This document shows, piece by piece, positions 2,841-27,978 of a DNA stretch of 39,048 nucleotides. Each line of letters opens with the position of its first letter. Position 1 is the stretch's first letter. The DNA lies in the NCBI GenBank assembly GCA_964366055.1, contig CAYISE010000004.1, positions 1-39,048 of the forward strand, given 5' to 3'. A model generated the notes under the pieces. It ran no database searches, was not told where the DNA came from, and saw only the letters and a list, made by a program, of their open reading frames with translations. Origin of the DNA: an uncultured Candidatus Saccharibacteria bacterium. Its GTDB lineage: Bacteria > Patescibacteriota > Minisyncoccia > UBA6257 > GWB1-50-10. The position numbers and the translations under genes were made by a program.

Positions 2841-2948
2841 ATTTTTGCCATGCCCATTACTGGGTTTAGGCCTTATTCAGTTGTAATTTTAGGGTAGCAC
2901 ACTGGTCAAATTAAAACAATCGGAAACTTGATTAGTGGCTTGAAATAA

Positions 2949-3779: not shown

Positions 3780-3790
3780 GCTACCGAGGA
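3716..3790 (-). tRNA. tRNA-Asn (GTT), CCA encoded, imperfect acceptor stem
   Basis: TCCTCGG-TA-GCTC AATGGTA GAGC-G-GCTCC CT GTT AA GGAGA-TGGTT-GTAGG TTCGAGT CCTAC-CTGCGGA-GCCA. Confidence 0.95.
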
Positions 3791-4236: not shown

Positions 4237-4309
4237 CCCCCTATAGCTCAGTTGGTAGAGCACCTGCCTTTTAAGCAGTGGGTCCCAGGTTCGAATCCTG
4301 GTGGGGGGA
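4237..4309 (+). tRNA. tRNA-Lys (TTT), CCA not encoded
   Basis: CCCCCTA-TA-GCTC AGTTGGTA GAGC-A-CCTGC CT TTT AA GCAGT-GGGTC-CCAGG TTCGAAT CCTGG-TGGGGGG-A. Confidence 0.95.
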
Positions 4310-4333
4310 CAATGGAGAGTTCCTATCCGTTTT

Positions 4334-8378: not shown

Positions 8379-10318
8379 TGAATATTGAAAAACTTCTGAA
8401 CCCCAGTCAGTGGGAGGCGGTGAAGACGATTGAGGGGCCGGTCCTGGTGATAGCGGGGCCGGGCTCCGGGAAAACGCGGGTGATTGAATACCGCGTTTTG
8501 CATCTTATGGAAAACGGCGTGAGGCCGGAGGCTATTTTGCTTCTGACCTTCACGCGGCGGGCGGCGGCCGAGATGCTGAACCGCGCCGCCGAACACGACC
8601 CGCGCGCGCGGAAAGTGGAGGGCGGCACATTTCACTCCTTCGCTTATAAATTATTAAAACAATACGGCGCTAATCTAGGTTTACCGAAGAATCTTTTGAT
8701 TTTGGACGAGGACGACGCCCAGGAGGCGCTCGGGAAAATAGCGTCAAGAATCAATCTCACCGATGAGAATAAAAAATTTCCCCAAAAAAACACGCTCCGG
8801 AACATCATCAGCGGCGCGCTCAACAAAAATCTCTCCATAGAAGAGATATTGGAAAGGGGATATGAGCACTTGAGCCGATTTGCCGAAGATATAGAAAAAA
8901 TCAAGGAAAATTATGTCGCCTATAAAAGAGAGTCCGGCTATCTGGATTATGACGACCTTTTATTTTATTCAAGAGAACTCTTAAAAGATGAAAAAATCAG
9001 AGAGGTTCTTTCTCAAAAATATCGTTTTGTGATGGTGGACGAATACCAGGACACAAACAAACTTCAGGGCGATATCACCTATCTGCTTTCCGCCGGGCAT
9101 AAAAATGTGATGGTGGTGGGAGATGACGCTCAAAGCATCTACGGTTTTCGCGGGGCGCGCCACGAAAATATTATGAGTTTCCCGGAGCAGTTTGAGAATT
9201 GCAAAATCGTGAAATTGGAGAGCAACTACCGGAGCACGCAGGCGATTTTGGATTTGAGCAATGCCGTTCTGGAAAATATGGAAAATAAATTCAAAAAGAC
9301 CCTGCTGGCGGCTCGGGAGAGCGCCGGAGAAAAACCGAACATTATTTATTTTGGCGATGCCGAAGAAGAAGCGGCCTGGGTGAAGGAGAAAATCCATGAA
9401 TTTATTTTGAACGGCGCGCCGCCCGCGCGTCAGGCGGTGCTTTTTCGCTCCTCTTATGTCTCCATCCCGCTTCAGGCGGAACTGGCCCGCGCCGGACTGC
9501 CCTTCAAGATTTTCGGCGGATTGAAATTTTACGAAACCGCTCACGTAAAAGATGTGCTCGCGCATTTGAAAGTGCTCGCGAATTTCAAGGATGAATTGAG
9601 CTGGAGCCGGATTCTCACCTTACTGCCGGGTGTCGGCGGGAAAACCGCCGAGACGATTGCTTCTCAAATCCGCCGGGCGGGGGATTTGAACTCCGCCCTT
9701 AATGTTTTAGTTCGGTACGCGGAGGGCTATAAATATTCGCCGCATCTCGCGGAGTTGAAACAAACTCTCGCGAGGGCCGCCGTCCAAAATCTTTCCGTCG
9801 GCGGGAAATTCGGTCTCATCGCGGATTATTATCTTCCGATTCTGAAAGAAAAATTCGACGAATGGCCGAATCGGCTGAACGACTTGGAAGCGTTACGGCC
9901 AATCACCTTGAGTTACACGGACTTGAACGACCTGCTCGCCGATTTGGTGATTGAAATTCCCGAAGACAGACAACAGAATGAAAAACTACTCACCCTTTCC
10001 ACCATTCACTCGGCCAAGGGCTTGGAATGGGATGTGGTTTATCTTTTGGGCGTGATGGAGGGGGTGTTGCCGTCAAAAATAGCTTTAAAGTCGCGAGAAG
10101 AAATAGAAGAAGAGCGCCGGCTTTTCTATGTGGCGATTACTCGCGCCCGGAATAAGCTTTTTTTGCTTTTTCATCTGGCGGGAAATATGGGTCCGATGTC
10201 ATTTAATCGGCTTTCCAGATTTTTGGATGACCCGAGCGTGCTTTTGAGTGTGGAACACAAGGACTTATCAAATGGTTCAAATGATGGGATTTATGACGAG
10301 GAATCAGTGGAATATTAG
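8378..10318 (+). CDS. UvrD/PcrA-family ATP-dependent DNA helicase
   Basis: AGPGSGKT, VDEYQD, GDDAQSIYGFRGA, NYRS, TIHSAKGLEW, EERRLFYVAITRA. Confidence 0.95.
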   Translation: MNIEKLLNPSQWEAVKTIEGPVLVIAGPGSGKTRVIEYRVLHLMENGVRPEAILLLTFTRRAAAEMLNRAAEHDPRARKVEGGTFHSFAYKLLKQYGANLGLPKNLLILDEDDAQEALGKIASRINLTDENKKFPQKNTLRNIISGALNKNLSIEEILERGYEHLSRFAEDIEKIKENYVAYKRESGYLDYDDLLFYSRELLKDEKIREVLSQKYRFVMVDEYQDTNKLQGDITYLLSAGHKNVMVVGDDAQSIYGFRGARHENIMSFPEQFENCKIVKLESNYRSTQAILDLSNAVLENMENKFKKTLLAARESAGEKPNIIYFGDAEEEAAWVKEKIHEFILNGAPPARQAVLFRSSYVSIPLQAELARAGLPFKIFGGLKFYETAHVKDVLAHLKVLANFKDELSWSRILTLLPGVGGKTAETIASQIRRAGDLNSALNVLVRYAEGYKYSPHLAELKQTLARAAVQNLSVGGKFGLIADYYLPILKEKFDEWPNRLNDLEALRPITLSYTDLNDLLADLVIEIPEDRQQNEKLLTLSTIHSAKGLEWDVVYLLGVMEGVLPSKIALKSREEIEEERRLFYVAITRARNKLFLLFHLAGNMGPMSFNRLSRFLDDPSVLLSVEHKDLSNGSNDGIYDEESVEY

Positions 10319-10324
10319 GTTGTC

Positions 10325-10502
10325 GCCCCGGAAGCAAAGGTTTCTCGGAACCGGCCTCGATTTTCTCCAGCGGAAAATCGGGCCTGCGCTCTCGGCGAAA
10401 AACTTTTGCTTTGCAAAAGACCAAGCCCCCACGCCTACGCGTAGGTGTGGGGGCAAGCTTTTTCGCCTCCGAGAGCTTCCTTGAAACCCTTGCTTCCGGG
10501 GC
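10325..10502 (-). repeat. Structured repeat family, copy A, carrying a nested 32-bp palindrome insertion
   Basis: Long closing stem; (+) TCCAGCG loop hairpin; CTCTCGG...ACCAAGC...CCTCCGAGAG arm. Confidence 0.85.
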
Positions 10503-10592
10503 TAGCCCATTTTTCTAAGTTGAGTTCCGAGAGAAGTACAGGCGGGGCGAGGAGGGTTGATTTTGAAAAAATAATTCCCATAATTAAGTCGT

Positions 10593-10826
10593 ATGTCCAA
10601 AGTGACTATTTACACCACCCCGAGCTGTGTTTTCTGCAAGATGGCCAAGGCATTTTTTCAGGCGAATAAAATAGATTACGCGGAAAAGGACGTAGCCACC
10701 GACTTGCCGGCCCGGCAGGCGATGATTGAAAAATCCGGACAAATGGGCATACCGGTGATTGACGTGGATGGCAATATTATTATCGGTTTTGACAAAGAGC
10801 GCCTGACCGAACTTCTTTATCTTTAA
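10593..10826 (+). CDS. Glutaredoxin-like (NrdH/YruB) redoxin
   Basis: YTTPSCVFC, GQMGIPVI, IIGFD. Confidence 0.92.
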   Translation: MSKVTIYTTPSCVFCKMAKAFFQANKIDYAEKDVATDLPARQAMIEKSGQMGIPVIDVDGNIIIGFDKERLTELLYL

Positions 10827-10832
10827 TTCTCA

Positions 10833-11975
10833 ATGAAACGGCAAGATGTTTATCGCGGCTCTCTCGCTCTCCATAAAAGATATCGGGGCAAGCTGGAGAT
10901 AAAAAGCAAAGTGCCCTTGAGAAATAAGTCCGATCTCGCGCTGGCTTACACGCCGGGGGTGGGCGCGGTGAGTAGAGCCATCGGAAAAAATAAATCGCTC
11001 GCTAAATTTTACACTCTGAAGCACAACACGGTGGCGGTCGTATCCGACGGCTCGTCCGTTTTGGGACTGGGAAATTTGGGCGCTGCGGGGGCCATTCCGG
11101 TCATGGAGGGGAAGGCGATTTTGTTCAAAGAATTGGCTGGCGTTGACGCTTTCCCGATTTGTTTAAACACCCAGAATCCGGATGAGATCGTGGCGGCGGT
11201 GAAAAACATCGCGCCGGTTTTTGGCGGAATCAATTTAGAGGATATCGCCGCGCCCCGTTGTTTTGAAGTGGAGAGGAGATTAAAAGAAGAACTGGATATC
11301 CCCGTGATGCACGATGACCAGCACGGAACGGCGACGGTGGTGCTGGCCGCGCTCATCAACGCTTTGAAATTACGCGGCTCAAAAAAAGAAAAAGTGAAAG
11401 TCGCGGTTAACGGCGCCGGGGCGGCCGGCAACGCGATTACTCAACTGCTCCTCAAATTCGGTTTTAAAAATATTATCGTGGTGGATTCTCGCGGAGCCAT
11501 CTATGAAGGGCGGAGTCACTTGGACCAGTATAAAAAAGTATTGGCGAAACGCACGAACGCGGAAAAAATTAAAGGCGATTTGAGCGGATGTCTAAAGGGA
11601 AGGGATATTTTTATCGGAGTAAGCCGCGCTGGTCTTTTAAAGCCGGGGATGATTGAAAAAATGAATGCCAAACCGGTCATTTTAGCTTTGGCCAATCCCG
11701 TGCCGGAAATAATGCCGGCTTTGGCCAAAAAGGCCGGCGCTTTCATCGTGGCCACGGGCCGCTCGGATTTTCCGAATCAAATTAATAATGTTCTGGTTTT
11801 CCCCGGGGTTTTTCGGGGCGCTTTGGATAACGGCGTGAAACAAATCACCGACAGAATGCTCATTAAAGCCGCTCAAAATCTGGCCGCCGCGACAAAAAAT
11901 TTGAATCCGAATAAAATTTTACCCGATATTTTTGACAAACTCGTTGTCAAAGCCATCGCTCGCGCGGTAAAATAG
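10833..11975 (+). CDS. NAD(P)-dependent malic enzyme
   Basis: LAYTPGV, PVMEGKA, INLEDI, HDDQHGT, GAGAAG, TGRSDFPNQINN. Confidence 0.95.
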   Translation: MKRQDVYRGSLALHKRYRGKLEIKSKVPLRNKSDLALAYTPGVGAVSRAIGKNKSLAKFYTLKHNTVAVVSDGSSVLGLGNLGAAGAIPVMEGKAILFKELAGVDAFPICLNTQNPDEIVAAVKNIAPVFGGINLEDIAAPRCFEVERRLKEELDIPVMHDDQHGTATVVLAALINALKLRGSKKEKVKVAVNGAGAAGNAITQLLLKFGFKNIIVVDSRGAIYEGRSHLDQYKKVLAKRTNAEKIKGDLSGCLKGRDIFIGVSRAGLLKPGMIEKMNAKPVILALANPVPEIMPALAKKAGAFIVATGRSDFPNQINNVLVFPGVFRGALDNGVKQITDRMLIKAAQNLAAATKNLNPNKILPDIFDKLVVKAIARAVK

Positions 11976-11990
11976 AGATTGATTTCACGA

Positions 11991-13439
11991 TTATGAGGTT
12001 TTCTTTGTTTTGTTCACGCGCAATTTTAACCAGTTGTTTTCCAATCTTCCCTCAAAATCCGGCGGCAATTTGCCGCGGAAAGGCGCGAAGATTTTCACCC
12101 AATTGCCGATATGAGCGACCTGGAAGTTAATTCCCGTTCTTCTCCCGTAATGCTCAACTTTCCCCAAAAGTTCCGAGGCGTTTTCTCTTTTCACATAGGC
12201 CAAGAATGAACCGTCGCTCACCTCAAGGTAAGCGTGTTTTGGCTTCCAGAGCGGTTCCCCAGTCTCCTGGTCTCTCGGCGCTTCGGCGGCGATGGCCGGC
12301 AATTGGCCGGGCAGTCGTCCGGGCGCCCCGTTTTTCCACCGGGTGGAGGGGTTTTTGATATAGATTACCCCGCTGGTTGACCTGCCTCCCAGTTCGGCGT
12401 GAAAAACATTCGTCTCGCTTTTCAGGAAAACTCGGGAACCGCGGATGTTTTCTGTTTGTTTTTTCATCGCGCTCTCCAAATCGTGTTTTCGGATAAACTC
12501 ATCCGATAACGGTTCACGCGCTTTTTGTTCCACAATTTCTTTCACGATTTTTCTGGTTTCGCCGAAATCGGACCAATTGATTTTTGCTTCTTTTAGGAAA
12601 TCGCTCATGACGCTCAAAACCTGCTCGTGATTCAGGAGGCGGTTGATTTTGAAGAAGTTTATTTTTGATTCATCAAAGAAATTTTCGACGGTCGGCTCCA
12701 GCCATTCATTCCGTTCAATAACGTCGGCAAAAAGAACCGCGCCCATCAACTCCATTTTTTTCCGGTCTTCCAATTTGTCAAAGAACCCCGCTTTGGTGAG
12801 AATTTCGTACAAAATTGCCGTGGGACCGGATTCCATCTCCCGCGCTTCCCGGCCGTTTCTTCTCCCCGCGGCGGCGTACTTCTTTTTTTCTGCTTCACTC
12901 ACGCAGAGTTTAAGTCCGTTGGCGAGCTGCTCCTTCGGGATTTGGTTTTCTTTTCCGATTTCAAAGAATTCAATCCGGCTGTTTTGGATGAGCCCCGATT
13001 CTTCCAGAAGCATTATTTGGGTTTCGTAGCCGAGCCCCCGCGGCGGCGCAATTTTTGTCTCCCGGCTTTGGTAATCGTAACTGATGTAGCCGGGAATCAG
13101 GAATGTCCGGTAGTGTTTTTCCAGGGCCTTCCTCAAAAATCCTTTTAATTCTTCTTTATCCTCGTATTGGCCGATACCCGCCTCTCCTTTGAGCCAGGCA
13201 TTCTCGTAAAGCGGGTCAATAATCTCGCCCTTGAGGCCGGTTAAAAGATTGGCGGACGATTTATCGTCCAATTTTTTCTCCACGCCCTTCTCAATATTTT
13301 TCAAAACCATTTCATCTACCCGTTCCAGCGCTTCGCTCGCGATAATGTTCTCTTTCTCTTCCGGCGGATAATTTTGATTTTTTTCAAAGCGATTATTTGC
13401 CATTAATTTAATCATTGTCTCTTTCCGAAATATCGTCAA
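11991..13439 (-). CDS. Hypothetical protein (up to 482 aa; start uncertain)
   Basis: Long uninterrupted ORF with host-like charged composition; no recognised family. Confidence 0.75.
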   Translation of the reverse strand: MTIFRKETMIKLMANNRFEKNQNYPPEEKENIIASEALERVDEMVLKNIEKGVEKKLDDKSSANLLTGLKGEIIDPLYENAWLKGEAGIGQYEDKEELKGFLRKALEKHYRTFLIPGYISYDYQSRETKIAPPRGLGYETQIMLLEESGLIQNSRIEFFEIGKENQIPKEQLANGLKLCVSEAEKKKYAAAGRRNGREAREMESGPTAILYEILTKAGFFDKLEDRKKMELMGAVLFADVIERNEWLEPTVENFFDESKINFFKINRLLNHEQVLSVMSDFLKEAKINWSDFGETRKIVKEIVEQKAREPLSDEFIRKHDLESAMKKQTENIRGSRVFLKSETNVFHAELGGRSTSGVIYIKNPSTRWKNGAPGRLPGQLPAIAAEAPRDQETGEPLWKPKHAYLEVSDGSFLAYVKRENASELLGKVEHYGRRTGINFQVAHIGNWVKIFAPFRGKLPPDFEGRLENNWLKLRVNKTKKTS

Positions 13440-13502
13440 TCCTGCCGGCAGATTATAACCAATCCTGATTTACAGAGAAAACCCGCTGTCAAAAACTCAC
13501 TC

Positions 13503-13643
13503 GCCCTGCCACAACGCTATTCAGGCACCGGCGGTTCGTTTGCTCCAGCGGCAAACGACCGCCTACACTCTCGGTTCAAAAACCCTTCGAGTACCGATCT
13601 TTTGAACCTCCGAGAGTTGCCTGAACAGCGCTACGGCAGGGCA
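13503..13643 (-). repeat. Structured repeat family, copy B
   Basis: 25-bp closing stem whose four + strand mismatches are all A-C (G-U on minus); TCCAGCG loop; CTCTCGG/CCTCCGAGAG arm. Confidence 0.85.
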
Positions 13644-13732
13644 CCATACCCGTTTGGCCTCGCTCATCTGAAAAGTATAGTTTGTCAGATACCCTTGTGG
13701 TAGAATTCAAGCAAAGGTCATTTTAAACCGCC

Positions 13733-13954
13733 ATGCTTAATTTTTTTCAAGGAGACCAGTGGCTGATATTTATACTTGTTCTGTGGACTTTGCCGTGGAA
13801 AGGGGTGGCGCTTTGGAAGTCGGCGCGGTTGTCTCACAAGAAATGGTTTGTCGCTTTGCTCATCTTAAACACCGTCGGGATTCTGGAAATTCTGTACATT
13901 TTCGTATTTTCAAAGAAGGGGAAGCAGATTTTGGCGGAGAAAGACAATAAATAA
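13733..13954 (+). CDS. Small membrane protein, DUF5652-like
   Basis: WTLPWKGVALWKSA...WF...NTVGILEILY. Confidence 0.85.
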   Translation: MLNFFQGDQWLIFILVLWTLPWKGVALWKSARLSHKKWFVALLILNTVGILEILYIFVFSKKGKQILAEKDNK

Positions 13955-14706
13955 TGCCGAGTTTTAAAAACGGCCGGCGGGCCAGAAATATTTTTGACCC
14001 CGCTTCCGAAGAACCCTTCAAGGTAAGCCGTTCCAAGCTGGAACTTTTTTTGGGGTGTCCCCGGTGTTTTTATTTAGACCGCCGGCTGGGCGTCGGCCGG
14101 CCATCCATGCCCGGTTTCACTCTGAACACCGCGGTGGACAATCTTTTGAAAAAAGAATTTGATATTCACCGGGCCGCAGGTTCAAGTCATCCCCTAATGA
14201 AGGCCTACAAGATAGATGCGGTGCCGTTTCGGCATGAGATGATTAACGAATGGCGGGAAAATTTCAAAGGTATCCAGTATCTCCATCGGCCGACCAATTT
14301 CATAATCACCGGCGCGGTGGACGATATTTGGGTGAATCCGAACGGGGAATTGATTGTGGTGGATTACAAGGCGACGAGCACCGCCGGCGAGTTGACTTTG
14401 GATACCGAATACCGACAGGATTACAAGCGCCAGCTGGAAATTTATCAGTGGCTTCTGAAGGAGAGCGGCTTCAGGGTTTCCGAGATGAGTTACATTGTTT
14501 ACGCGAACGGCGACAAAGACAAGAAGGCCTTTGACGGAAAGCTGGAATTCAACATCGTGGTTTTGCCGCACCGGGGCGACACGGCGTGGATAGAAGGAGC
14601 GATTTTGAGCACCAAGGAATGTTTAATGGGCGAACTGCCCGCGGCCGCTCCCGATTGCGAATATTGCCTTTATCGGAAAGCCGCCGCCGCGCACGAGAAG
14701 AAATAA
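13954..14706 (+). CDS. PD-(D/E)XK nuclease, RecB/AddB-like
   Basis: CPRCFY, GAVDDIW, VDYKAT, QLEIY, C-terminal CEYC. Confidence 0.88.
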   Translation: MPSFKNGRRARNIFDPASEEPFKVSRSKLELFLGCPRCFYLDRRLGVGRPSMPGFTLNTAVDNLLKKEFDIHRAAGSSHPLMKAYKIDAVPFRHEMINEWRENFKGIQYLHRPTNFIITGAVDDIWVNPNGELIVVDYKATSTAGELTLDTEYRQDYKRQLEIYQWLLKESGFRVSEMSYIVYANGDKDKKAFDGKLEFNIVVLPHRGDTAWIEGAILSTKECLMGELPAAAPDCEYCLYRKAAAAHEKK

Positions 14707-14836
14707 ACTAGAGAATAAGAGTTTTTTGGCGCTAGAGATTTTTCACCGGTATTATGTATAATACCGATATATTTTTTCCGAGTATTCTTTGAAAGTATTT
14801 TATTTCCAGGTGGTATAATCAATTATACCACCTATA

Positions 14837-14865
14837 TTGACTTTTACGATAGCTAGTGCTATATT
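14837..14865 (+). promoter_or_regulatory. Sigma70-type promoter
   Basis: TTGACT-N17-TATATT. Confidence 0.55.
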
Positions 14866-14890
14866 CTCTTCTAGAAGATTCCAATTTTCG

Positions 14891-14919
14891 CTCCGTTTGG
14901 GAAACCAAACGGAGTTTTT
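14891..14919 (+). terminator. Intrinsic terminator
   Basis: CTCCGTTTGG-GAAA-CCAAACGGAG followed by TTTTT. Confidence 0.65.
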
Positions 14920-15204
14920 GTTATAATAAAAAGTGAAATTTATTAGGGAGTCCGACTTCCTAATTTCCTAATTAGACCAGTGAGCATTTAATCATCCGAC
15001 CGCCGCCTAATATCCAAGCACTTCAATTAATTGAAGTGCCTTAATCAACCAAAGCGCTTTACGGAGTTCAACTCCGTAAGAAAATCCAACACTGGAATCA
15101 ATCCTTATGTAGGGCTTTTAAAACATGGGAATACGCATAAATTAAGAAAAATGGTTTGTAAAGCGCATCTTATATCAGGTGAAACAAACGGCTATAATAG
15201 ATGA

Positions 15205-16854
15205 ATGATTCTGTTCGAAGAACTTAAAGGAGTAACGGAAGGAGAGGTGGCGGCGGATGAAGCGACGTTGAAGTTCTTCAGCCGCGACACGAGCTTGTTT
15301 GAAGTGAAGCCGGCGGCCGTGGTTTTCCCGAAAAATGTCGCGGACATTAAAAATCTTGTAAATCACATTTCTGAAAAAAAGCGAGAAAATCCGGCTTCAA
15401 ACATTTCTCTGACCGCCCGCTCGGCCGGGACGGATATGACGGGCGGGCCCTTAACCGAATCAATCGTTTTGAACTTCACTAGATATTTTAACCGCGTTAA
15501 AGAGGTGACGGAGGACTATGCGGTCGCGGAGCCGGGCGTTTTTTACCGCGATTTTGAAAAGGAGACCCTGAAGAAAAACGCCTATCTTCCCTCCTACCCC
15601 GCTTCGCGGGAGATTTGCGCCCTGGGCGGAATGGTGGCCAATAACTCCGGCGGGGAGAAGTCCTTGATTTACGGGAAAACGGAGGATTATGTTTCGGAGC
15701 TGAAGGTTGTTTTGGGCGACGGGAACGAATATGTTTTGAAACCGCTCAACCCGGAAGAACTTAAAGAAAAATTGGCGCTTCGGAATTTTGAGGGCGAGGT
15801 ATACCGGCGGACGCGCAAACTTCTGGAAGACAATTATGATTTGGCCCGGTTGGCTAAGCCGCTGGTTTCAAAAAATTCCGCCGGCTACGATATTTGGAAT
15901 ATCTGGGATGGAAAAACCTTTGACCTGACGAAACTTTTCGTGGGGTCCCAGGGAACGTTGGGGATTGTGACCGAAGCCAAATTCAAACTCGTGAAGACCA
16001 AACCCTTTTCCGGCATGTTCGTCGTTTTTCTGAATGATTTGAAGCCGACGGCCGAGATTGTGAATATGATTTTACCCTTAAAGCCGATGAGTTTGGAGTC
16101 ATTTGACGATTATACTTTCAAACTGGCGCTGAAATTTTTCTACGGTTTTTTCAAACTTTTCGCCCGGAATCCGTTTTCCCTGTTTTTCGGTTTTCTGCCG
16201 GAGTTTTGGCTGGCGCTCACGCGCGGTTTGCCGAGAATCACGATTCTCGCGGAGTTTGAAGAAGAAACCCAAACAGCGGTGGAGGAAAAGTTAAAGCAAT
16301 TGGAAGATAAATTGAAGCCGCTGCATCTCATCCGCCGCATCGCTCACACGGCGAAGGCCGAAAAGAAGTACTGGATTATCCGCCGCGAAAGTTTTAACCT
16401 GCTGCGTCAAAGAGCGCGGGGAATGCGCACGGCGCCCTTCGTGGACGACGTCATTGTTGACCCGAAGTATCTGCTGGAATTTTTGCCGAAGGTTTACGAA
16501 ATTCTGGATAGGTACCGATTGCTCTACACGATTGCCGGCCACGTCGGGAACGGTAATTTTCATATTATTCCTTTGATGAATCTAGACGAGGAAAGCGAGC
16601 GGGCCAAAATTCCTAAAGCGATGGAAGAGGTTTTCTCGCTGGTTTTAAATTATCACGGCTCCATTACCGCCGAACATAACGACGGTTTGGTTCGGAGCCA
16701 TTATCTGGAGCGGATGTACGGCCCGAAGGTCTATGGATTGTTTAAGGAAATAAAAAACATTTTTGACCCGTTGAACATTTTCAATCCCGGTAAAAAAGTG
16801 AACGCGGATTTTGATTACGCTTTGAGACACATAAAACAAGGAGAGCCGCAATGA
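15205..16854 (+). CDS. FAD-binding oxidoreductase (D-lactate dehydrogenase/GlcD family)
   Basis: RSAGTDMTGG, GGMVANNSGG, GSQGTLGI, GHVGNGNFH, AEHNDG, FDPLNIFNPGK. Confidence 0.9.
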   Translation: MILFEELKGVTEGEVAADEATLKFFSRDTSLFEVKPAAVVFPKNVADIKNLVNHISEKKRENPASNISLTARSAGTDMTGGPLTESIVLNFTRYFNRVKEVTEDYAVAEPGVFYRDFEKETLKKNAYLPSYPASREICALGGMVANNSGGEKSLIYGKTEDYVSELKVVLGDGNEYVLKPLNPEELKEKLALRNFEGEVYRRTRKLLEDNYDLARLAKPLVSKNSAGYDIWNIWDGKTFDLTKLFVGSQGTLGIVTEAKFKLVKTKPFSGMFVVFLNDLKPTAEIVNMILPLKPMSLESFDDYTFKLALKFFYGFFKLFARNPFSLFFGFLPEFWLALTRGLPRITILAEFEEETQTAVEEKLKQLEDKLKPLHLIRRIAHTAKAEKKYWIIRRESFNLLRQRARGMRTAPFVDDVIVDPKYLLEFLPKVYEILDRYRLLYTIAGHVGNGNFHIIPLMNLDEESERAKIPKAMEEVFSLVLNYHGSITAEHNDGLVRSHYLERMYGPKVYGLFKEIKNIFDPLNIFNPGKKVNADFDYALRHIKQGEPQ

Positions 16855-17717
16855 ATAAGTTCATATTCATATTCTCGTTTTTGGGGGCGGTTTTGTTTGC
16901 GGGGCGGGCGTTCGCGGCCGAGCCGCCGGTTATATTTTCCAACGCGCTTCTTTTTCAGGGGGACATATTGGTTGCCGTTGTCTCGGACAAAAACGCCGTT
17001 CCCGCAAGCGCTTCGTTGGATAACCGAGATATTTCGGTGTTCAACTACGACAATTCGTACCGAATCGTCGGGGCGATACAAGCGAATGAACGGGTTGGAT
17101 ATCACGATTTTTCGGTGAAATTCGCCGACGGCGCCGTGTTTCAAAAGAAAATCTACATTCGGGCGCGGAAATTCCCCGTGGTGGATTTGGGAGTGCCGGA
17201 AAAACTGGGCGTGACGGCGGAAGAACTCGCGCGAAATCTGGAGAAAGAAAAGTCGGATTTGAACTCCATCGTCGCCGTGAAAACCGCCAACATATTCTTC
17301 TCGCGGAATTTCGGCTTGCCGCTTGCGAACAACAGCCGCATCGCGGCGCCTTACGGGGAAATCAGAAAAAGCGGCGGACAATTAATCCGGCATCTCGGAG
17401 TTGATTTCGGCGCGCCGAAGGGCAGCGCGGTCGCGGCCATTAATGACGGTATCGTGAAAAAAGCGGGCGATGACCCCATTTACGGCAATACGGTAATAGT
17501 GGACCACGGCGCGGGGATTTTTTCGCTCTATATGCATTTGGACTCAATCAAAGCGAAGGTCGGTCAGCCGGTGAAATATGGACAGGTGGTCGGCACGGTC
17601 GGGGAGACGGGCTACGCCACCGGGTCGCATCTCCATCTCTCCATAAAAATCAATACGGTGTCCGTTGATCCAATAAGGTTTGTGAAGATTTTAAAATTAC
17701 GGAGTTCAACTCCGTAG
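16851..17717 (+). CDS. M23-family metallopeptidase, secreted
   Basis: Signal peptide; HLGVD, YMHL, HLH motifs; last codons and stop fall inside a 21-bp palindrome. Confidence 0.92.
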   Translation: MNKFIFIFSFLGAVLFAGRAFAAEPPVIFSNALLFQGDILVAVVSDKNAVPASASLDNRDISVFNYDNSYRIVGAIQANERVGYHDFSVKFADGAVFQKKIYIRARKFPVVDLGVPEKLGVTAEELARNLEKEKSDLNSIVAVKTANIFFSRNFGLPLANNSRIAAPYGEIRKSGGQLIRHLGVDFGAPKGSAVAAINDGIVKKAGDDPIYGNTVIVDHGAGIFSLYMHLDSIKAKVGQPVKYGQVVGTVGETGYATGSHLHLSIKINTVSVDPIRFVKILKLRSSTP

Positions 17718-17729
17718 GAAACCTTGCGC

Positions 17730-17758
17730 TTGCGTTTTTTTTAAGAAAGGGGTAGAAT
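17730..17758 (+). promoter_or_regulatory. Sigma70-type promoter
   Basis: TTGCGT-N17-TAGAAT upstream of the 76-aa ORF. Confidence 0.55.
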
Positions 17759-17830
17759 TAAATAGGTTCTTTAGGAAGGGTTTGTTCATGCTTAAATAAT
17801 TTTTTCAACCCTTTTCCCCTGGAGGGAATA

Positions 17831-18061
17831 ATGCGCACAATGCTCTACCCCAGTTATTTCTGTGAGGACGTCACGGGTCGGATATTGGTAAACCCGACGT
17901 CGGACGATTTTTTTCCGGAGGTTTTTACAAAACCACCGGTTAAAAAATTCCCCAGGCCTCCGGAGTTTTCAGAATCGGAGGTGATTGTAATAAGTGCGGA
18001 AGAGAGGTTTGATGGGCCGAACAAGGCGGGAAGGAAATTTTTCGGGAGAAGAGTGAAATAG
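17831..18061 (+). CDS. Small hypothetical protein
   Basis: Own promoter, GGAGGG before the ATG, downstream hairpin. Confidence 0.55.
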   Translation: MRTMLYPSYFCEDVTGRILVNPTSDDFFPEVFTKPPVKKFPRPPEFSESEVIVISAEERFDGPNKAGRKFFGRRVK

Positions 18062-18066
18062 TTTCT

Positions 18067-18096
18067 AAGCCGAGTCCCAATATAGTGACTCGGCTT
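18067..18096. terminator. Hairpin, possible terminator
   Basis: AAGCCGAGTC-N10-GACTCGGCTT right after the stop; no clear U tract. Confidence 0.4.
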
Positions 18097-18138
18097 CAAA
18101 TTTGATTTCGTATTTGCCCTATTATACACTAGTGGAAA

Positions 18139-19398
18139 ATGGTTTCTAAAAAGCGGTTGGTGGCAGTTCTTATATTTTTAGTGGCGCTTTCGGTCGGCGC
18201 CGCGGTTTTTGATTACGAACCGCTCTGGCAAAAAATCAGTTCCGGCGGGCAGTGGAAATTGGGATTGGACTTGGCCGGCGGAAGTTTGCTCACTTACGAA
18301 ATGGACTTGTCTAAAGTCGCCCCGGCCGACCAAAATTCGGTGGTGACGGGCTTGCGAGACGTGATTGAGAAACGGGTGAATCTTTTCGGCGTGAGTGAAC
18401 CCAGGGTCTATAACGAAACAAGCGGCGGCAAGACCCGGCTGGTGGTGGAACTGGCCGGCATAAAAGATGTGAACCAAGCAATTAAAGAAATCGGCGCGAC
18501 GCCATTTTTGGATTTCCGCGAAGTGACCCAAACGGCGGACGCGACCTCCACCCTTAAGTTTATTTCAACGCCCCTGAATGGCCGCTACATCACCAGCGCT
18601 CAATTGAATTTCGGTTCCGTGACGCGCGAGCCGCAGGTTGATTTGCAGTTCAACGACGAGGGGGCGAAAATTTTTGCCGAATTGACCGAGAAAAATGTCG
18701 GGAGGCCCCTGGCTATTTTTTTGGATGAACAATTGATTGAAATGCCGACCGTCCGGGAAAAAATTACGGGCGGCAAGGCCCAAATCAGCGGCAATTTCAC
18801 GATTGATTCCGCGAAACAACTTATAGAGCGTTTTAACGCGGGCGCTCTGCCGGCTCCGATTACGCTCATCAATCAGCAGACCATCAGCGCCGATTTCGGG
18901 AAGGAGGCCTTTGATAAGGCCGTCTTCGCCGGATTTTTGGGGATGCTTGCGGTGATTCTCTTTATGATTATTTATTATCGGCAACTGGGAATTTTTGCCG
19001 CTTTCGCGCTGGTAATGTATGCGGCTCTCACGCTCGCGGTTTTCAAAATCGTTCCCATTACCATGACGCTTTCGGGCATCGCCGGTTTTATTCTTTCCAT
19101 CGGTATGGCGGTGGACGCGAACATCCTGGTTTTTGAGAGAACGAAGGAAGAAACGAAAAAGGGTTTAAGCCACTATTCCGCGATTGAAGAAGGTTTTCGG
19201 CGCGCCTGGACCTCCATCCGGGATTCCAATATCAGCACGATGATTACCGCCGCGGTATTATATTATTTCACCTCCAGTTTCGTGCGCGGCTTCGCCCTCA
19301 CGCTCTTCATCGGCGTCTTAGTCAGCATGTTCTCGGCCATTACCATTACGCGGACGATGCTGCGGATATTTATCGGCCGAGATGAAATAAAAAAATAA
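18139..19398 (+). CDS. secD: Protein translocase subunit SecD
   Basis: LGLDLAGG, RVNLFGVSEP, GALPAP, IGMAVDANILVFER. Confidence 0.97.
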   Translation: MVSKKRLVAVLIFLVALSVGAAVFDYEPLWQKISSGGQWKLGLDLAGGSLLTYEMDLSKVAPADQNSVVTGLRDVIEKRVNLFGVSEPRVYNETSGGKTRLVVELAGIKDVNQAIKEIGATPFLDFREVTQTADATSTLKFISTPLNGRYITSAQLNFGSVTREPQVDLQFNDEGAKIFAELTEKNVGRPLAIFLDEQLIEMPTVREKITGGKAQISGNFTIDSAKQLIERFNAGALPAPITLINQQTISADFGKEAFDKAVFAGFLGMLAVILFMIIYYRQLGIFAAFALVMYAALTLAVFKIVPITMTLSGIAGFILSIGMAVDANILVFERTKEETKKGLSHYSAIEEGFRRAWTSIRDSNISTMITAAVLYYFTSSFVRGFALTLFIGVLVSMFSAITITRTMLRIFIGRDEIKK

Positions 19399-19408
19399 AA
19401 TTAAAAAT

Positions 19409-20302
19409 ATGCTGGACGTCATTGGCAAAAGAAAATATTTTTTGGGTTTCTCGGGACTAATGGTCCTCGCGAGCTGGATTTTAGCGGTTACGTTGGGTTT
19501 GCGCCCCGGCATTGATTTGAAGGGTGGCACGGAGTGGCAGATTTCATTTTCAAAAAATGACGTTACGGAATCAGCGGTGCGAACGGCGTTAAAAAACGCG
19601 ATGCCGGAGGCGGGTGAAACAAACGTGAAGCGCGCTGGCGACGGAAGTTTTCTGATTCGCCTGCCGGGTCTGGACGAAGAAGTTCACCAAAAATACGCCG
19701 AGGCGCTCAAAAAAGATTTTGGCGATTTGACCGAGAAAAATTATTCCAGCATCGGGCCGGCCATTGGGTCGGAGTTGAAAAACAAAGCCATTTGGGCGGT
19801 GGCGCTGGTTTTGGTCGGCATCTCGCTTTTTATCGCTTGGGCCTTCCGGAAGGTCTCCGAACCGGTAAAATCCTGGAAGTACGGGGTCGTCACTTTGCTC
19901 ACGTTAGTGCACGATGTAAGTATCCCCGCCGGTTTGCTCGCCGTTCTCGGCTATTGGCAGGGGATTGAAATTGATACTAATTTTATCGTGGCGCTTCTGG
20001 TGGTGATGGGTTTTTCGGTTCACGATACCATCGTGGTCTTTGACCGCATTCGGGAAAATCTGACGATTAATCGCGGCAAGAAAATAGAATTGGGAGAAAT
20101 TATAAACTACAGCGTGAAAGAGACCTTCGCCCGTTCGATCAACACCACCTTAACCCTGATTTTGGTTTTGTTAGTGCTTTTAGTATTCGGTCCGCCCTCT
20201 CTTTTTTATTTCATCCTCACGATTCTCACGGGCACGATTTTCGGCACCTATTCTTCCATTTTCGTGGCCAGCCCCCTGCTTTTCTTATGGCAGAAGAGGT
20301 AG
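19409..20302 (+). CDS. secF: Protein translocase subunit SecF
   Basis: GIDLKGG, HDV, GFSVHDTIVVFDRIRE, GTYSSIFVA. Confidence 0.97.
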   Translation: MLDVIGKRKYFLGFSGLMVLASWILAVTLGLRPGIDLKGGTEWQISFSKNDVTESAVRTALKNAMPEAGETNVKRAGDGSFLIRLPGLDEEVHQKYAEALKKDFGDLTEKNYSSIGPAIGSELKNKAIWAVALVLVGISLFIAWAFRKVSEPVKSWKYGVVTLLTLVHDVSIPAGLLAVLGYWQGIEIDTNFIVALLVVMGFSVHDTIVVFDRIRENLTINRGKKIELGEIINYSVKETFARSINTTLTLILVLLVLLVFGPPSLFYFILTILTGTIFGTYSSIFVASPLLFLWQKR

Positions 20303-20355
20303 TACGGCATGTCCCACCTCTCTTTGCAAAAAATGATATATCGGTAACGCCCCGC

Positions 20356-20630
20356 ATTCTCCCGCAGTGTCTTTCGGAACCGCGGTTCGCTTGCTCCTGC
20401 GGCAAGCGCCCGCTGCGCTCTCGGAGCGGCAAATCCTTACGGATTTTTGAATTCCGAAACAGAAGATTTTAACCCCGCTTCGCTCTGCTTCCAGCGGCAG
20501 AGTTCACTGCTGAAAAGGGTTTTTGCCGCAAACCCTTTTCAGAGGTAAAAATCTTCTGTTTTGTAATTCAAAGTACGGATGCCAAGCTTGCCGCTCCTCC
20601 GAGAGCTTCCTCAAAACACCGCGGCAGAAT
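20356..20630 (-). repeat. Structured repeat family, copy C, interrupted by a nested element
   Basis: Closing stem with TC/TC internal loop; TCCTGCG loop hairpin; CTCTCGG...GCCAAGC...CCTCCGAGAG arm. Confidence 0.85.
20445..20573. mobile_element. Nested 129-bp MITE-like element with terminal inverted repeats and 7-bp direct-repeat flanks
   Basis: TACGGAT at 20438-20444 and 20574-20580; ~30-bp imperfect TIRs; internal TCCAGCG loop. Confidence 0.7.
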
Positions 20631-20673
20631 ATTTGGAGAGAGTGTTACTGCATATATTCGTCCAGTACATTTT

Positions 20674-20703
20674 TTGACTTATTCATAGCAATTGTGTTAT
20701 CAT
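20674..20703 (+). promoter_or_regulatory. Sigma70-type promoter
   Basis: TTGACT-N18-TATCAT with an extended -10 TG. Confidence 0.5.
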
Positions 20704-20716
20704 TATAACCGCAAAT

Positions 20717-21736
20717 ATGAAACAAAATCTTGACCAGTTGATTGAGAATCTTCTCATTGAATTTACGCCCAAACAGCGCCGAGTCATCGTCGGCCGTTTT
20801 GGTTTGAAAAGCGGGGAGCGAGTGACATTGCAGTCCATCAGCAATGAACTCAAAGTTACTCGCGAGCGGGTGCGCCAAATTGAGGAACAGACCATTAAAA
20901 AATTGGTAAAGAAGGTGAGAGAAGAAGCGGCCCCAATCATTGAGTACGCCGAGAAACACTTGGCGAGCGTGGGCGGCGTGAAACGCGACGACGCTTTCAT
21001 CGTTGATATGACTCACGGTTTGGCAATTGGTTCCGATGTCAAACACGCCGGCCAGAAACTACGTTTCCTGTTCCTGGTGGCGGGAACGCCGGCGTATTCC
21101 AAGAATGATAATAATATGCATGGCTTCTGGTTCACCGACGAAAGGGCCAAAGAAAAATTTAACGACTTCGTGAAAACCGTCACTAATTTTTTGAAGACCG
21201 GCAAAAAAGAGGAGATTTTAGACAAGAAACTTTATTTGAATCAGTGCAAGGACTTGGTTTCCTGCCATCTTCTTTCCATTCCCAAACATTTCGGGGTGAA
21301 TGTTTTCGGCGATTTCGGCTTGCGGGTCTGGCCGGAGATTGAACCCAAAACAATTCGCGATAAGGTTTATTTGGTTTTGAAGAAACACGACAAGCCGATC
21401 CATTTTGAGGCCATCGCGAAAAATATTAATAAATTCGGTTTGGATAAAAAATCGGCCCACGCCCAGACGGTTCATAACGAACTGATCAAGGATGAGCGCT
21501 TTGTGCTCGTGGGACGGGGGATTTACGCCCTGAAAGAAAAGGGCTATGAACCCGGCACGGTGCGGGAAGTGATCGCGCGGCTCTTGAAAAAGCACGGCCC
21601 CTTGGAATCGACGACGGTGGTCAAGCTCGTTAATGAACAGCGGCTTCTGAAAGAAAATACGATTTTATTGAATCTCCAGAATCGGCGTTTCTTTAAGCGC
21701 CTGGATAACGGGAAATATCAAGTGCGGGAAGCGTAA
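20717..21736 (+). CDS. Sigma70 region-4 HTH protein with C-terminal winged-helix (HARE-HTH/RNAP delta-like) domains
   Basis: RFGL...TLQSI...VTRERVRQIE; TVHNELIKDERFVLVGRGIYAL; no sigma region 2. Confidence 0.8.
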   Translation: MKQNLDQLIENLLIEFTPKQRRVIVGRFGLKSGERVTLQSISNELKVTRERVRQIEEQTIKKLVKKVREEAAPIIEYAEKHLASVGGVKRDDAFIVDMTHGLAIGSDVKHAGQKLRFLFLVAGTPAYSKNDNNMHGFWFTDERAKEKFNDFVKTVTNFLKTGKKEEILDKKLYLNQCKDLVSCHLLSIPKHFGVNVFGDFGLRVWPEIEPKTIRDKVYLVLKKHDKPIHFEAIAKNINKFGLDKKSAHAQTVHNELIKDERFVLVGRGIYALKEKGYEPGTVREVIARLLKKHGPLESTTVVKLVNEQRLLKENTILLNLQNRRFFKRLDNGKYQVREA

Positions 21737-21744
21737 GATTTTTT

Positions 21745-21879
21745 TCCACTCCCATTTCCTAAAGCACCGGATGTCGCGTTGCTCCAGCGGCAACGCGCAT
21801 CGTTACGCTCTCGGCGAAAAAATCCTTCGGATACCAAGCTTTTTCGCCTCCGAGAGTTGCTTTAGGAAACAGGAGCGGA
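21745..21879 (-). repeat. Structured repeat family, copy D (minimal, uninterrupted)
   Basis: 22-bp closing stem with three A-C (minus G-U) pairs; TCCAGCG loop; ATCCTTCGGAT-ACCAAGC inner loop. Confidence 0.85.
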
Positions 21880-21923
21880 TAACTTCAATAGTTGGTTTAG
21901 ATAGAGTAAAATAAAAGGGAGTT

Positions 21924-23339
21924 ATGTTCGGCCATCTTTTGAAAGAAATAACTTCCTTTTTTGAAGAACTTTTTCAGAAGGAAGAAACCTGGTGGATACT
22001 TTTTATAACCGGTCTGGCCGGAGCGGTTTTTGTTCCTCTTTTCGGACTAGCTGATGTCATCGCGGCGATTATTTATTTTCTGGAACTGACCTGGTGGCTG
22101 TGGCTGTTTTTGATTCTTTTTTACCTGTTTCGCGAAACCTGGCTTCACTGGCATCAGGAGGTTTTTAAAGAAGGCATCAATTGGATTGTTTTGGAGTTGA
22201 GAATTCCGCGCCAGATTGAAAAAAGTTCCAAGGCGATGGAACAGGTGCTGGCCGCGATTCATTCACTTCGGAACGCGCCCGGCGATTTTAAAGAAAAATA
22301 TCTTGACGGCGAGGTCACCCGCTGGTTTTCTCTGGAGATGGTCAGCTTCGGCGGAGAAATCCATTTTTACGTGCGGACCTACGCGAAATTGAGGAATCTA
22401 GTGGAGGCGGCTTTCTTTTCTTACTATCCGGGTTTGGATATCGTGGAAGTGCCGGACTATGTCGCTCGTTTTCCGGAAAAGGTCTATGAAATATATGAAC
22501 AGGGTTTGAATTTATGGGGTACGGAAATGAAATTGGAAAAAGAAGAAATTTATCCGATTAAGACCTATACTGATTTTGAGCACGAGGCCGAAGAGAAGAA
22601 TTTTGACCCCATCTCCACTTTCTTAGAAATGTTGGGGAAACTGAAGAAAAACGAAATTGTCGGCATTCAAATTTTAATCGCGCCGGCTGGCTCGGGGGAG
22701 TGGGACGAAAAATTTGAACCGGAACTGAAGAAATTACGGGAACCCGCGACAAGAAAAGTAAAGGGCCGCCAAATGCCCGAGGGAGGGAACGAAGAGTACG
22801 AGATGACGATTATGCGCTCGCCCGGCCAAGTGGATATTTTGAAAGCGGTGGAAGAAAATCTTTCCAAACCGGCTTTTGATACGCTCATTCGTTTTATTTA
22901 TCTTTCGGATAAGGCGACCTTTTCAGATAGTTTTTCTAAGGGTTTAAAGGGAACGCTAAACCAATATTCGGCGCTTAATCTTAATTCATTTAAAGAAAAC
23001 AAAGGAGTTGCGACTCGCGCCCGGATTTGGAACAAACCCTATGTTTTTCCGGATACCCGGGTGGAGTATCGGAAGGCGCGCTTGCTGCTCAATTATGCAA
23101 AGAGGGAAATTCCGCCTGAAACCGCGATGGGGCGGGTGATTACTTCGTTTCTGTTCAATTGGAATAAGGCCTCCAAACGATTCAAGATGAACACAAAGTG
23201 TTTAGGGACTGTTTATCACATCCCCACGGCGGCGGTTTTAACCGAACCGCACTTGAAGCATTTGGAAAGCAAGAAGGCGGGTCCGCCCTCCGGTTTGGCT
23301 ATTTTCGGCGAAGAGGAGGAATTGGAAAGATATAAATAG
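21924..23339 (+). CDS. Membrane-anchored conserved hypothetical protein upstream of VirD4-like ATPases
   Basis: N-terminal TMs; LELRIP, AMEQV, FSLEMVS, YPIKTY, QILIAP. Confidence 0.8.
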   Translation: MFGHLLKEITSFFEELFQKEETWWILFITGLAGAVFVPLFGLADVIAAIIYFLELTWWLWLFLILFYLFRETWLHWHQEVFKEGINWIVLELRIPRQIEKSSKAMEQVLAAIHSLRNAPGDFKEKYLDGEVTRWFSLEMVSFGGEIHFYVRTYAKLRNLVEAAFFSYYPGLDIVEVPDYVARFPEKVYEIYEQGLNLWGTEMKLEKEEIYPIKTYTDFEHEAEEKNFDPISTFLEMLGKLKKNEIVGIQILIAPAGSGEWDEKFEPELKKLREPATRKVKGRQMPEGGNEEYEMTIMRSPGQVDILKAVEENLSKPAFDTLIRFIYLSDKATFSDSFSKGLKGTLNQYSALNLNSFKENKGVATRARIWNKPYVFPDTRVEYRKARLLLNYAKREIPPETAMGRVITSFLFNWNKASKRFKMNTKCLGTVYHIPTAAVLTEPHLKHLESKKAGPPSGLAIFGEEEELERYK

Positions 23340-27912: not shown

Positions 27913-27978
27913 AATGTAACGTTCTCCATTCTATTGAAAATTTACAAATATTTCAAGATAATTGCGGAGATGAGGAAA

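Follow-up and report, generated by a model that had tools for sequence, protein, structure and literature searches.

Introduction

How does a genome of about 0.6 Mb from the candidate phyla radiation (CPR), with little spare DNA, still hold about two dozen branched repeats of 120-180 nt, some of them within essential genes? The question is raised by a stretch of 39,048 nt, hereafter the window, that spans positions 1 to 39,048 of contig CAYISE010000004.1 (GenBank assembly GCA_964366055.1) and is part of a 27-contig, 572-kb genome, 98.8% complete, of an uncultured Candidatus Saccharibacteria bacterium. An initial annotation of the window had pointed to four intergenic copies of a structured element, here copies A to D, and had named as candidates a new noncoding RNA (ncRNA) or ribozyme and a non-autonomous element moved as RNA or single-stranded DNA (ssDNA). 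Coordinates given without a contig refer to the window; G000 is the source genome and G001 to G004 are its four congeners, C numbers denote contigs and L numbers loci, and "element sense" is the strand that the initial annotation called minus in the window.

Among these candidates the non-autonomous element fits best, given empty orthologous sites, copy numbers from 0 to 24, nesting, mosaics and in-frame insertions, and with a probability of roughly 0.6 we read the element as a new family of small, non-autonomous, selfish and structure-dependent mobile repeats, of the kind represented by Rickettsia palindromic elements (RPE) and by MITEs (miniature inverted-repeat transposable elements). Published work describes bacterial MITE-like repeats as folding into long stem-loops and as being found in in-frame fusions with genes, 19 Rickettsia genes in the case of RPE, reports a conserved motif in the terminal loop of CIR elements, and gives the mobiliser of RPE as unknown (PMC2229807).

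The family appears to be undescribed. The initial annotation had recognised no named family, and a search of the whole window with Rfam 15 at gathering thresholds returned two tRNAs and LOOT RNA only, with none at the copies; at E<=10 over positions 10200-22000, the best match had an E-value of 0.92, far under gathering, and the match that came nearest, LOOT, reached 19.9 bits against a gathering score of 46.4. Full-text searches of the literature and a term search within one preprint (bioRxiv 10.64898/2026.10.21.760802) turned up no description of the element for Patescibacteria, and the supplementary motif tables of that preprint and of PMC5737381 may hold related motifs.

Results

A three-way junction upheld by covariation

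Minus-strand folding of each copy placed the outermost pairs of the closing stem, P1, at 10325-10502, ~13502-13643, ~20356-20631 and 21745-21879, which bears out the boundaries first annotated to 1-2 nt. The proposal of a shared fold with differing closing stems also held, as one three-way junction is common to copies A-D and the sequence of P1 is unlike between them. P1 comprises 20-30 bp whose sequence varies by copy, and close to its upper end carries a tandem purine mismatch (AA/GA). On the minus strand, P2 opens with CUCUCG and a GAG bulge, continues through an inner helix and the unpaired GCUUGGU to a tip hairpin that varies, and closes with CGAGAG; a linker of 4-5 nt (CGCA, UGUA or CGUA) joins it to P3, a hairpin in two parts that has a bulged A and bears the loop CCGCWGGAG (CGCNGGA across the family). 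The whole measures ~120-180 nt, more when nested, and its composite motif, CTCCWGCGG-N(8-30)-CTCTCGG, occurs four times in the window and in none of 100 dinucleotide-preserving shuffles.

The stems covary, as had been claimed from the four copies alone. We built a covariance model (CM), R1, from 20 copies of the source genome and assembled 77 copies for the analysis of covariation and strand, having earlier used the 30 best copies from other genomes. In the 77-copy alignment, which was fitted to the model and is thereby biased toward it, 94.4% of pair cells were paired, against 64.1% (standard deviation 0.6) in shuffles and 35.8-49.4% in slid controls, double changes occurred at 35 of 37 pairs, and the covariation score was 0.806 against 0.210, a level attained in 0 of 500 shuffles; despite the bias, the signal thus greatly exceeds the controls. 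The 30 foreign copies, aligned with the same bias, gave 93.8% standard pairs (63.0% when shuffled) and double changes at 34 of the 37 pairs, and an independent analysis of the four window copies with MAFFT and RNAalifold found 21 of 45 pairs compensated.

The fold is also specific to one strand. With RNA parameters, 68 of 77 copies folded more stably in element sense than on the complementary strand (mean -7.5 kcal/mol), and with DNA parameters 70 of 77 did so (mean -3.1), with similar results for own and foreign copies; G-U pairs outnumbered A-C oppositions in element sense by 47 to 22. In P1 of the window copies, where the initial annotation had read nearly all mismatches as A-C on the plus strand and G-U on the minus strand, we counted, partly by eye, some 11 minus-strand G-U pairs (one in A, five in B, two in C and three in D), no A-C and one G-G mismatch. 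The asymmetry in stability and the excess of G-U over A-C together uphold a strand-specific, single-stranded fold; they are compatible with either RNA or ssDNA as the folded form and do not decide between them. The loops at the tip of P2 are mostly GAA/GNA triloops and other purine-rich loops, with few GNRA loops, no UUCG loop and recurring tips of the GCGAAGC type. GAA/GNA-type loops are typical of stable DNA mini-hairpins, and this spectrum gives a weak hint toward DNA.

Patchy distribution among Patescibacteria

Within the source genome, an nhmmer profile made from the four copies gave 22 matches at E<=1e-5 and CM R1 gave 27 matches at E<=1, 21 of them strong, which puts the genome at about 21-27 copies. 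We searched two samples: an order sample of 61 genomes, G000 included, and a phylum sample of 150 other genomes spread evenly over the phylum. The CM found the element in 28 of the 61 order-sample genomes (19 of 36 others in the same family, 8 of 24 other families, and G000) and not in the remaining 33. Copy number is mostly 1-9 in order-sample genomes that have the element, is 2-8 in the congeners G001-G004, and ranges overall from 0 to 24. In the phylum sample, 6 of 150 genomes match, some of them belonging to other classes and carrying 4-6 copies each.

A pattern scan over 185,579 species genomes returned mostly chance matches, and we checked 80 genome loci and 9 viral loci with the CM. Among the 80 genome loci listed, 22 were confirmed, all of them labelled as a CPR lineage or as an unnamed "bacterium" (the lineage labels being Liptonbacteria, Vogelbacteria, Niyogibacteria, Spechtbacterales, Minisyncoccia, Patescibacteria group, "Saccharibacteria" and "Peregrinibacteria"). 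The CM matched 0 of the 9 viral loci listed, and no autonomous parent was found among them. As far as we searched, the element is confined to CPR (Patescibacteria) genomes.

The site of copy B, upstream of a PD-(D/E)XK nuclease gene, is filled only in G000 and G019 among the 51 genomes that have the gene, and with a copy in just 2 of 51 genomes we set aside conserved synteny as a mark of function.

Empty sites, mosaics and nesting

All four congeners retain the order of genes that surrounds copies C and D, and the element is absent from both sites in each. The site of copy D holds a plain hairpin and a T-run in G003 and G004 and a 33-nt spacer in G002; that of copy C holds a 30-nt spacer with a promoter in G001 and an unrelated hairpin repeat in G003 and G004. 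In a relative's contig (run X9), 21736-21905 is replaced by 38 nt and copy D is missing. We saw no clean excision joint in DNA contigs of the source population. The repeat that occupies the spacer between secF and the sigma-factor gene in these last two congeners (L053/L054; G004:C2, G003:C7) measures ~75 nt and has two small apical hairpins, with loops AAA and GAA, and flanks formed by a TTGAC direct repeat.

Copies are assembled from parts that recur in different combinations. Those at C8:11204 and C16:13667 share P1 and P3 and have wholly unlike P2 helices, those at C9:750 and C16:268 are alike in P3 only, and subfamilies are common to several species at non-orthologous sites. Copies are also nested. 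The tip of P2 in copy C contains another repeat, "E2", a structured repeat distinct from the element with a hairpin of its own (loop CGCUGGAA) and with relatives at G000:C6:25863-25958, C7:27977-28100 and C21:7761-7881; the P2 tip of the C18 copy contains a shell element, "F"; and at least five copies of the element are themselves enclosed in an F shell. The GC-rich palindrome inserted in copy A is flanked on both sides by CTTG, and the copy at G000:C6:5439-5600 has the same insert.

The F shell is itself a repeat (...CAAATTCCCCAGCGAGGAATTTG...GGCCTCGCTCGC / ...GTGCCCGCTCGGCCTGCGAGACGGTTTTCT), with CTCGGCCT repeated on both sides of the enclosed part, and encloses several copies. Its loci are G000:C5:27276-27553, C11:9835-10101, C8:2160-2361, C10:4769-5019, C1:35671-35902 and C18:9890-10020, and one F shell, which lacks the three-way junction, sits inside the P2 tip of another copy.

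Three models of how a copy arises were rejected. The idea that every insertion generates P1 anew by inverted copying of the target fails because P1 is shared by near-identical copies from separate loci (L002 matches L003 at 100% identity, and P1 is common to C8:11204 and C16:13667). The core did not enter the loop of a pre-existing terminator, as the hairpin at the D site of G003 and G004 shares no sequence with P1 of copy D. Head-to-head doublets are not the mobile unit, the DNA between the paired copies being unrelated.

Copies inside conserved genes

Of the 77 copies, seven are inserted in frame in conserved genes, namely tgt, mnmA, a cysteine-desulfurase-like gene and parB. An antisense copy occupies one loop of tgt in G001, G003 and G028, where the open reading frame (ORF) stays open and the TGT domain is split. 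Other genomes show stages of its decay: G004 has a 114-nt in-frame deletion that leaves the whole 5' arm of P1 and 10 nt of the 3' arm, G002 retains a 15-nt piece of the 3' arm, and G035, G005 and G016 retain just a degenerate insert of 25-35 amino acids (aa). In most other genomes tgt gives a two-piece alignment without insert. In the cysteine-desulfurase-like gene (Aminotran_5, class-V aminotransferase) a copy stands at one site in both G000 (C1:51853-51980) and G024. An intact copy follows the residues ATGHYVR of mnmA in G052, and the window's own mnmA (ORF 27934-29184; Pfam tRNA_Me_trans) carries a decayed copy at the same site, antisense and in frame, at about aa 142-183. The copy in parB of G001 is sense-oriented and lies on the N-terminal side of ParB_N. 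For the other three genes, tgt, the desulfurase-like gene and mnmA, the insert divides the Pfam domain in two. Landing in frame in housekeeping genes, the element acts like selfish mobile DNA and not like an ordinary RNA gene.

Three of the four invaded genes (loci L024, L027, L099, L106, L323 and L040, and the window's mnmA) serve modification of the tRNA wobble base or its sulphur supply, a theme that may reflect chance or detection bias. Neither tblastn nor a search of the genome found tgt in G000, and all four congeners have it beside the PD-(D/E)XK gene.

Upstream of ligA, secA and a pilB-like gene (G000:C5:28232-30820, C8:11128-14226; L035 1368-3128), long ORFs also continue across copies of the element. 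The element's complement strand is often open, so that naive ORF calls extend these genes upstream through the copy, and we regard the extensions as likely start-codon artefacts.

Gene context and orientation

As annotated, the four window copies all face one way; A, C and D stand between plus-strand genes and B between divergent genes. The further observation that three of them are antisense to the flanking genes holds as a description of this genome and fails as a property of the family, since orientation differs between genomes. In G000, 16 of the 20 copies with a callable gene on their 3' side face its stop codon, at -5 to 115 nt, and for 20 of 24 copies the C-rich strand is the one that bears element sense. 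Among the best 30 foreign copies, 11 are (-,-), 10 (+,+), 4 (-,+) and 4 (+,-), the remaining one having no gene on one of its sides, and (+,+) is dominant in G001, G004 and G052 (11 against 2). Because other genomes differ in this way from G000, no rule of GC skew or orientation holds family-wide.

Neighbours of the copies are housekeeping genes (by Pfam, a UvrD-like helicase, malic enzyme, SecD, SecF and the PD-(D/E)XK nuclease). We looked for a protein gene consistently linked to the element among 113 ORFs flanking the 30 best loci and found none, no protein cluster being common to more than 2 of the 30 loci; nor was an autonomous parent found there. Scans for motifs and promoter sites revealed no conserved upstream motif, promoter or terminator that accompanies the copies, and the promoter-like sites beside copies A, B and C point to the downstream plus-strand genes. 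In this genus the P2 tip, read in element sense, is a GC hairpin followed by U5-6, a terminator-like arrangement. The U-run after the tip is kept in only ~10 of the 30 relatives' copies, and where a gene ends next to a G000 copy, the copy is mostly antisense to it.

Candidate mobilising enzymes

A group-II-like reverse transcriptase (RT) of 317 aa is encoded at G000:C9:884-1837 (-) (locus L059; RVT_1, 4e-16; TIGR04416, 1e-34, below cut-off), and paralogues at G000:C6:78-1001 (+) and at the start of C13 bring the RT loci of G000 to three. On C9, one copy of the element lies 10 nt past the RT stop codon in the same sense, and a second lies inverted upstream; the RT also has a conserved upstream non-coding region of its own, ~190 nt long and containing a homopolymer run; two contigs break there. 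Homologues of the RT are present in 23 of the 61 order-sample genomes (13 with both RT and element, 10 with RT only, 15 with the element only, 23 with neither), and any RVT_1 match occurs in 26 of 61, comprising 13 of 28 element-bearing and 13 of 33 element-free genomes. We rejected the RT as partner, as its presence does not track the element and only one of 29 RT loci, that on G000:C9, has copies within 1.5 kb. A reading of this locus as a diversity-generating retroelement was also rejected: the 197-nt repeat shared by C9 and C13 differs at all four bases and is therefore not a pair of template and variable repeats.

A Y1 protein of 230 aa, similar to RAYT and IS200 transposases, is encoded at G000:C1:37924-38677 (the gene spans 1447-2139 of locus L128). 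The gene is flanked on both sides by a 25-nt hairpin, CTTTACGATGCCGGGAATCGTAAAG, of which a third, inverted copy lies inside the gene and which occurs only there. In the order sample, 15 genomes have both Y1_Tnp and the element, 5 have Y1 only, 13 the element only and 28 neither, an association with an odds ratio of 6.5 and p of 0.002 in which kin are not independent. In the phylum sample, 43 of 150 genomes encode RAYT-like proteins, a single genome giving as many as 7 matches, and these proteins are found in 3 of 6 genomes with the element against 40 of 144 without it. This partner, too, was set aside, with the order-sample signal not confirmed in the phylum sample and the gene flanked by its own hairpin instead of by the element. 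The recombinase beside the C16 copy, considered as an integron integrase, is Xer-like and scores 118.8 bits against the integron-integrase cut-off of 265.

Discussion

Probable selfish repeats that may move as a folded strand

In the reading that we prefer, that of a structure-dependent mobile repeat, the propagating form would be a folded single strand of minus sense, either ssDNA or RNA, on which the GAG bulge, GCUUGGU, the bulged A and the CGCNGGA loop may serve as recognition points for a putative trans-acting enzyme. Only copies that keep the fold would be copied or converted, and covariation would in that way be upheld at the level of the element. It could be sustained by selection on mobilisable masters, by gene conversion between copies and by arm-to-arm correction, and would require no function of the RNA for the host. 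Intragenic copies would be read through as extra peptide loops that later decay or are partly deleted, and effects on the host, such as stable mRNA hairpins or terminator-like P2 tips, are possible but secondary.

The closest parallels are RPE and the other MITE-like small mobile sequences Correia/NEMIS, ERIC, RUP, YPAL and CIR, which resemble the element in a length of 100-200 nt, small or compact host genomes, ends that pair into a long stem, a mostly intergenic position and the lack of a gene of their own; some are, in addition, fused in frame in conserved protein genes and translated through. In the same way our copies lie between genes and in frame within conserved genes, a likeness that assigns the element to a class by behaviour and not by homology, as it bears no sequence relation to these repeats and the comparison is one of analogy. 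It differs from them in its three-way junction, in covariation across classes of a phylum, in the strand asymmetry of its folding, in its Patescibacteria hosts, and in that no TA or other target-site duplication can be defined. Classical MITEs keep terminal inverted repeats, whereas here the ends, P1, vary and the apical core is conserved; the arms of P1 are inverted repeats but differ in sequence between subfamilies, direct repeats do not consistently flank recent pairs, and no parent was found at the 30 flanks or the 9 viral loci listed.

REP/BIME repeats and the REPIN-RAYT system offer a second comparison, being interspersed extragenic palindromes that are mosaic and often stand at the 3' ends of genes. 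The REP hairpin is thought to be recognised as ssDNA by a Y1 (HUH) transposase. Inverted doublets of the kind seen in REP/BIME also occur for the element, in G018 (32 nt between the copies), twice in G204, and on G000:C9. The element is nevertheless much larger than REPs and branched, its copies within one genome are far more divergent, the RAYT-like gene of G000 has a hairpin of its own, and co-occurrence is inconsistent. Palindrome-associated elements derived from IS200/IS605 and ncRNAs associated with retrons or other RTs share with our proposal a dependence of single-strand mobility or reverse transcription on hairpins, but the element is not tied to an RT and has no linked TnpA or TnpB.

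Several findings weigh against a selfish mobile repeat. No mobilising enzyme was found, and of the RT, the RAYT-like Y1 protein and the Xer recombinase, all of which were tested, none is supported. No target-site duplication, conserved terminus or recent insertion junction could be defined; a classical transposase substrate would show the opposite of the pattern seen here, in which conservation is at the centre and variation at the ends. Orientation in G000 is not random, with 10 (-,-) against 1 (+,+) in co-directional contexts. The only copy in G019, which occupies the site of copy B, still reaches 91.3 bits, and genomes of different genera or families have copies at identical intragenic sites. 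Lastly, the orthologous copies of G000 (C20:8769) and G002, which are 93% alike, keep the fold through compensatory changes: in P1 and in P3 both partners of a pair have changed, U-A to C-G, and an indel of 3 nt in one outer arm is matched in the other. Such compensation in situ and the shared filled sites fit equally well with selection at the level of the host and with gene conversion together with arm-to-arm correction.

Alternative explanations

The last of these points bear most directly on the alternative that survives best, which we consider unlikely: that the element is a structured RNA working for the host, either a multi-copy small RNA released from read-through transcripts by cutting at P1, for example by RNase III, or a cis-acting mRNA element, such as a 3' stabiliser, a processing site or a terminator, that binds a host protein through GCUUGGU and CGCNGGA. 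Besides the compensatory changes between orthologous copies and the retention of a high-scoring copy in single-copy genomes, it would account for the very strong covariation across genera and classes, for the invariance of the unpaired nucleotides, and for folding that is specific to one strand, with tandem G-A mismatches and G-U pairs on that strand. It would also suit the 16 of 20 G000 copies close to a gene stop, the GC hairpin with U5-6 at the P2 tip in this genus, and the plain terminator-like hairpin that congeners have at the site of copy D. A host RNA would not, however, be expected inside ORFs of tgt, mnmA, the desulfurase-like gene and parB, nor to be nested in its own kind or missing from 33 of the 61 order-sample genomes, with a copy number that ranges from 0 to 24. 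No promoter accompanies it, the U-run stands in only ~10 of 30 relatives' copies, and its orientation flips from mostly antisense in G000 to mostly sense in G001, G004 and G052. For the proposal of a new ncRNA or ribozyme in the initial annotation, structure alone speaks, and the missing promoter and terminator and the flips in orientation speak against it.

A bolder version of mobility, to which we give only a small chance, would make the three-way junction the functional part of a type of mobility system so far undescribed in bacteria, in which a folded single strand is copied or pasted by its structure and not by its end sequence. In one form, this would be a pair resembling long and short interspersed nuclear elements (LINE/SINE), with the RT as the autonomous partner and the dispersed copies as its 3'-end-only offspring; G000 has three RT paralogues and 24 copies. 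In another, the bulge, GCUUGGU and the CGCNGGA loop would form a catalytic core that cuts and joins the element.

Still less probable, in our judgement, is a DNA site of the host that acts as folded ssDNA or as a cruciform, whether a recombination site of the attC/Xer type or a chromosome-organising site like REP/BIME. Integron attC sites are folded bottom-strand DNA with extrahelical bases, are recognised by structure and stand directly after ORFs. The element likewise keeps its structure while its sequence varies, has extrahelical bases, and in G000 places the folded strand complementary to the upstream gene just past its stop, the geometry of an attC bottom strand; its GAA/GNA triloops and GCGAAGC-type tips, and the position of element sense on the C-rich strand, are also in keeping with DNA. 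Sequence analysis alone, according to Weinberg et al., cannot separate ssDNA motifs from RNA motifs (PMC5737381). The genomic setting argues otherwise: attC neighbours are cassettes, whereas the element is flanked by core housekeeping genes, with no cassette array, integron integrase or conserved core sites (R''/R' checked by eye only); no conserved R-box-like termini were seen, and the sole adjoining recombinase is the Xer-like protein with its score far below the integrase cut-off. Copies, moreover, lie on many contigs, within genes and, in other genomes, in both orientations, and are patchy among relatives.

Least credible is that the repeat carries a new class of ribozyme, an RNA that cleaves itself or has some other catalytic activity, which the three-way junction with invariant unpaired nucleotides at the bulge, internal segment, linkers and loop and the multi-copy state (many small ribozymes are multi-copy) might suggest, but which matches none of the Rfam 15 ribozyme families, shows by inspection no covariation among variants for a tertiary pairing between GCUNGG and the P3 loop, and has many copies antisense to all local transcription.

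Significance

If the element is a selfish mobile repeat, a widespread family absent from Rfam 15 joins the short list of RPE-like selfish repeats, and its decaying copies provide a natural series of protein-loop insertions in tgt, mnmA, the cysteine-desulfurase-like gene and parB. It would also call for caution in RNA discovery, as a mobile element could uphold very strong covariation without any function of the RNA for the host. The combination of a conserved centre with variable ends would imply an enzyme that reads structure, potentially useful as a tool, and a family model would allow false N-terminal extensions (ligA, secA) to be masked and odd inserts in conserved proteins to be explained.

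Features of the window and minor observations

The copies and the features associated with them are collected in Table 1. Copy A lies 15 nt past the stop of the plus-strand gene for the UvrD-like helicase (identified from the Pfam domains of neighbours), and copy B is ~320 nt upstream of the PD-(D/E)XK nuclease gene. Copy C has secF on one side and a sigma-r4/HARE-HTH gene on the other, and copy D lies 13 nt past the stop of that sigma-r4/HARE-HTH gene.

Table 1. Element copies and associated features in the window, with covariance-model scores.
Feature	Position	Strand	CM core	P3 loop	CM score	Remarks and basis
Copy A	10325-10502	-	10334-10489	10365-10373	112.6 bits	Fold
Palindrome insert in copy A	10425-10454	.				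30 nt, GC-rich, within the unpaired GCUUGG segment of P2; alignment insert, hairpin listing, inspection by eye
Copy B	13503-13643	-	13511-13630	13543-13551	108.9 bits	Fold
Copy C	20356-20630	-	20363-20619	20394-20402	99.7 bits	Fold
E2 repeat in P2 tip of copy C	20455-20582 (approximate)	-				Weak nhmmer/CM matches, insert columns, hairpin scan
Copy D	21745-21879	-	21750-21870	21782-21790	103.9 bits	Fold
Fifth copy, decayed	28359-28482	-			24.8 bits (E 2e-5)	Inside mnmA

Elsewhere in the source genome, contig C20 carries the 3' end of a 16S rRNA gene ~90 nt from a copy of the element, and its last ~35 nt (about 9114-9148) look like Illumina adapter sequence, which would be an assembly artefact. 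In the window itself, the LOOT RNA (RF03000) lies at 2765-2872 (-) with 66.2 bits against its gathering score of 46.4, and near it are the two tRNA genes, tRNA-Asn at 3716-3790 (-) and tRNA-Lys at 4237-4310 (+).

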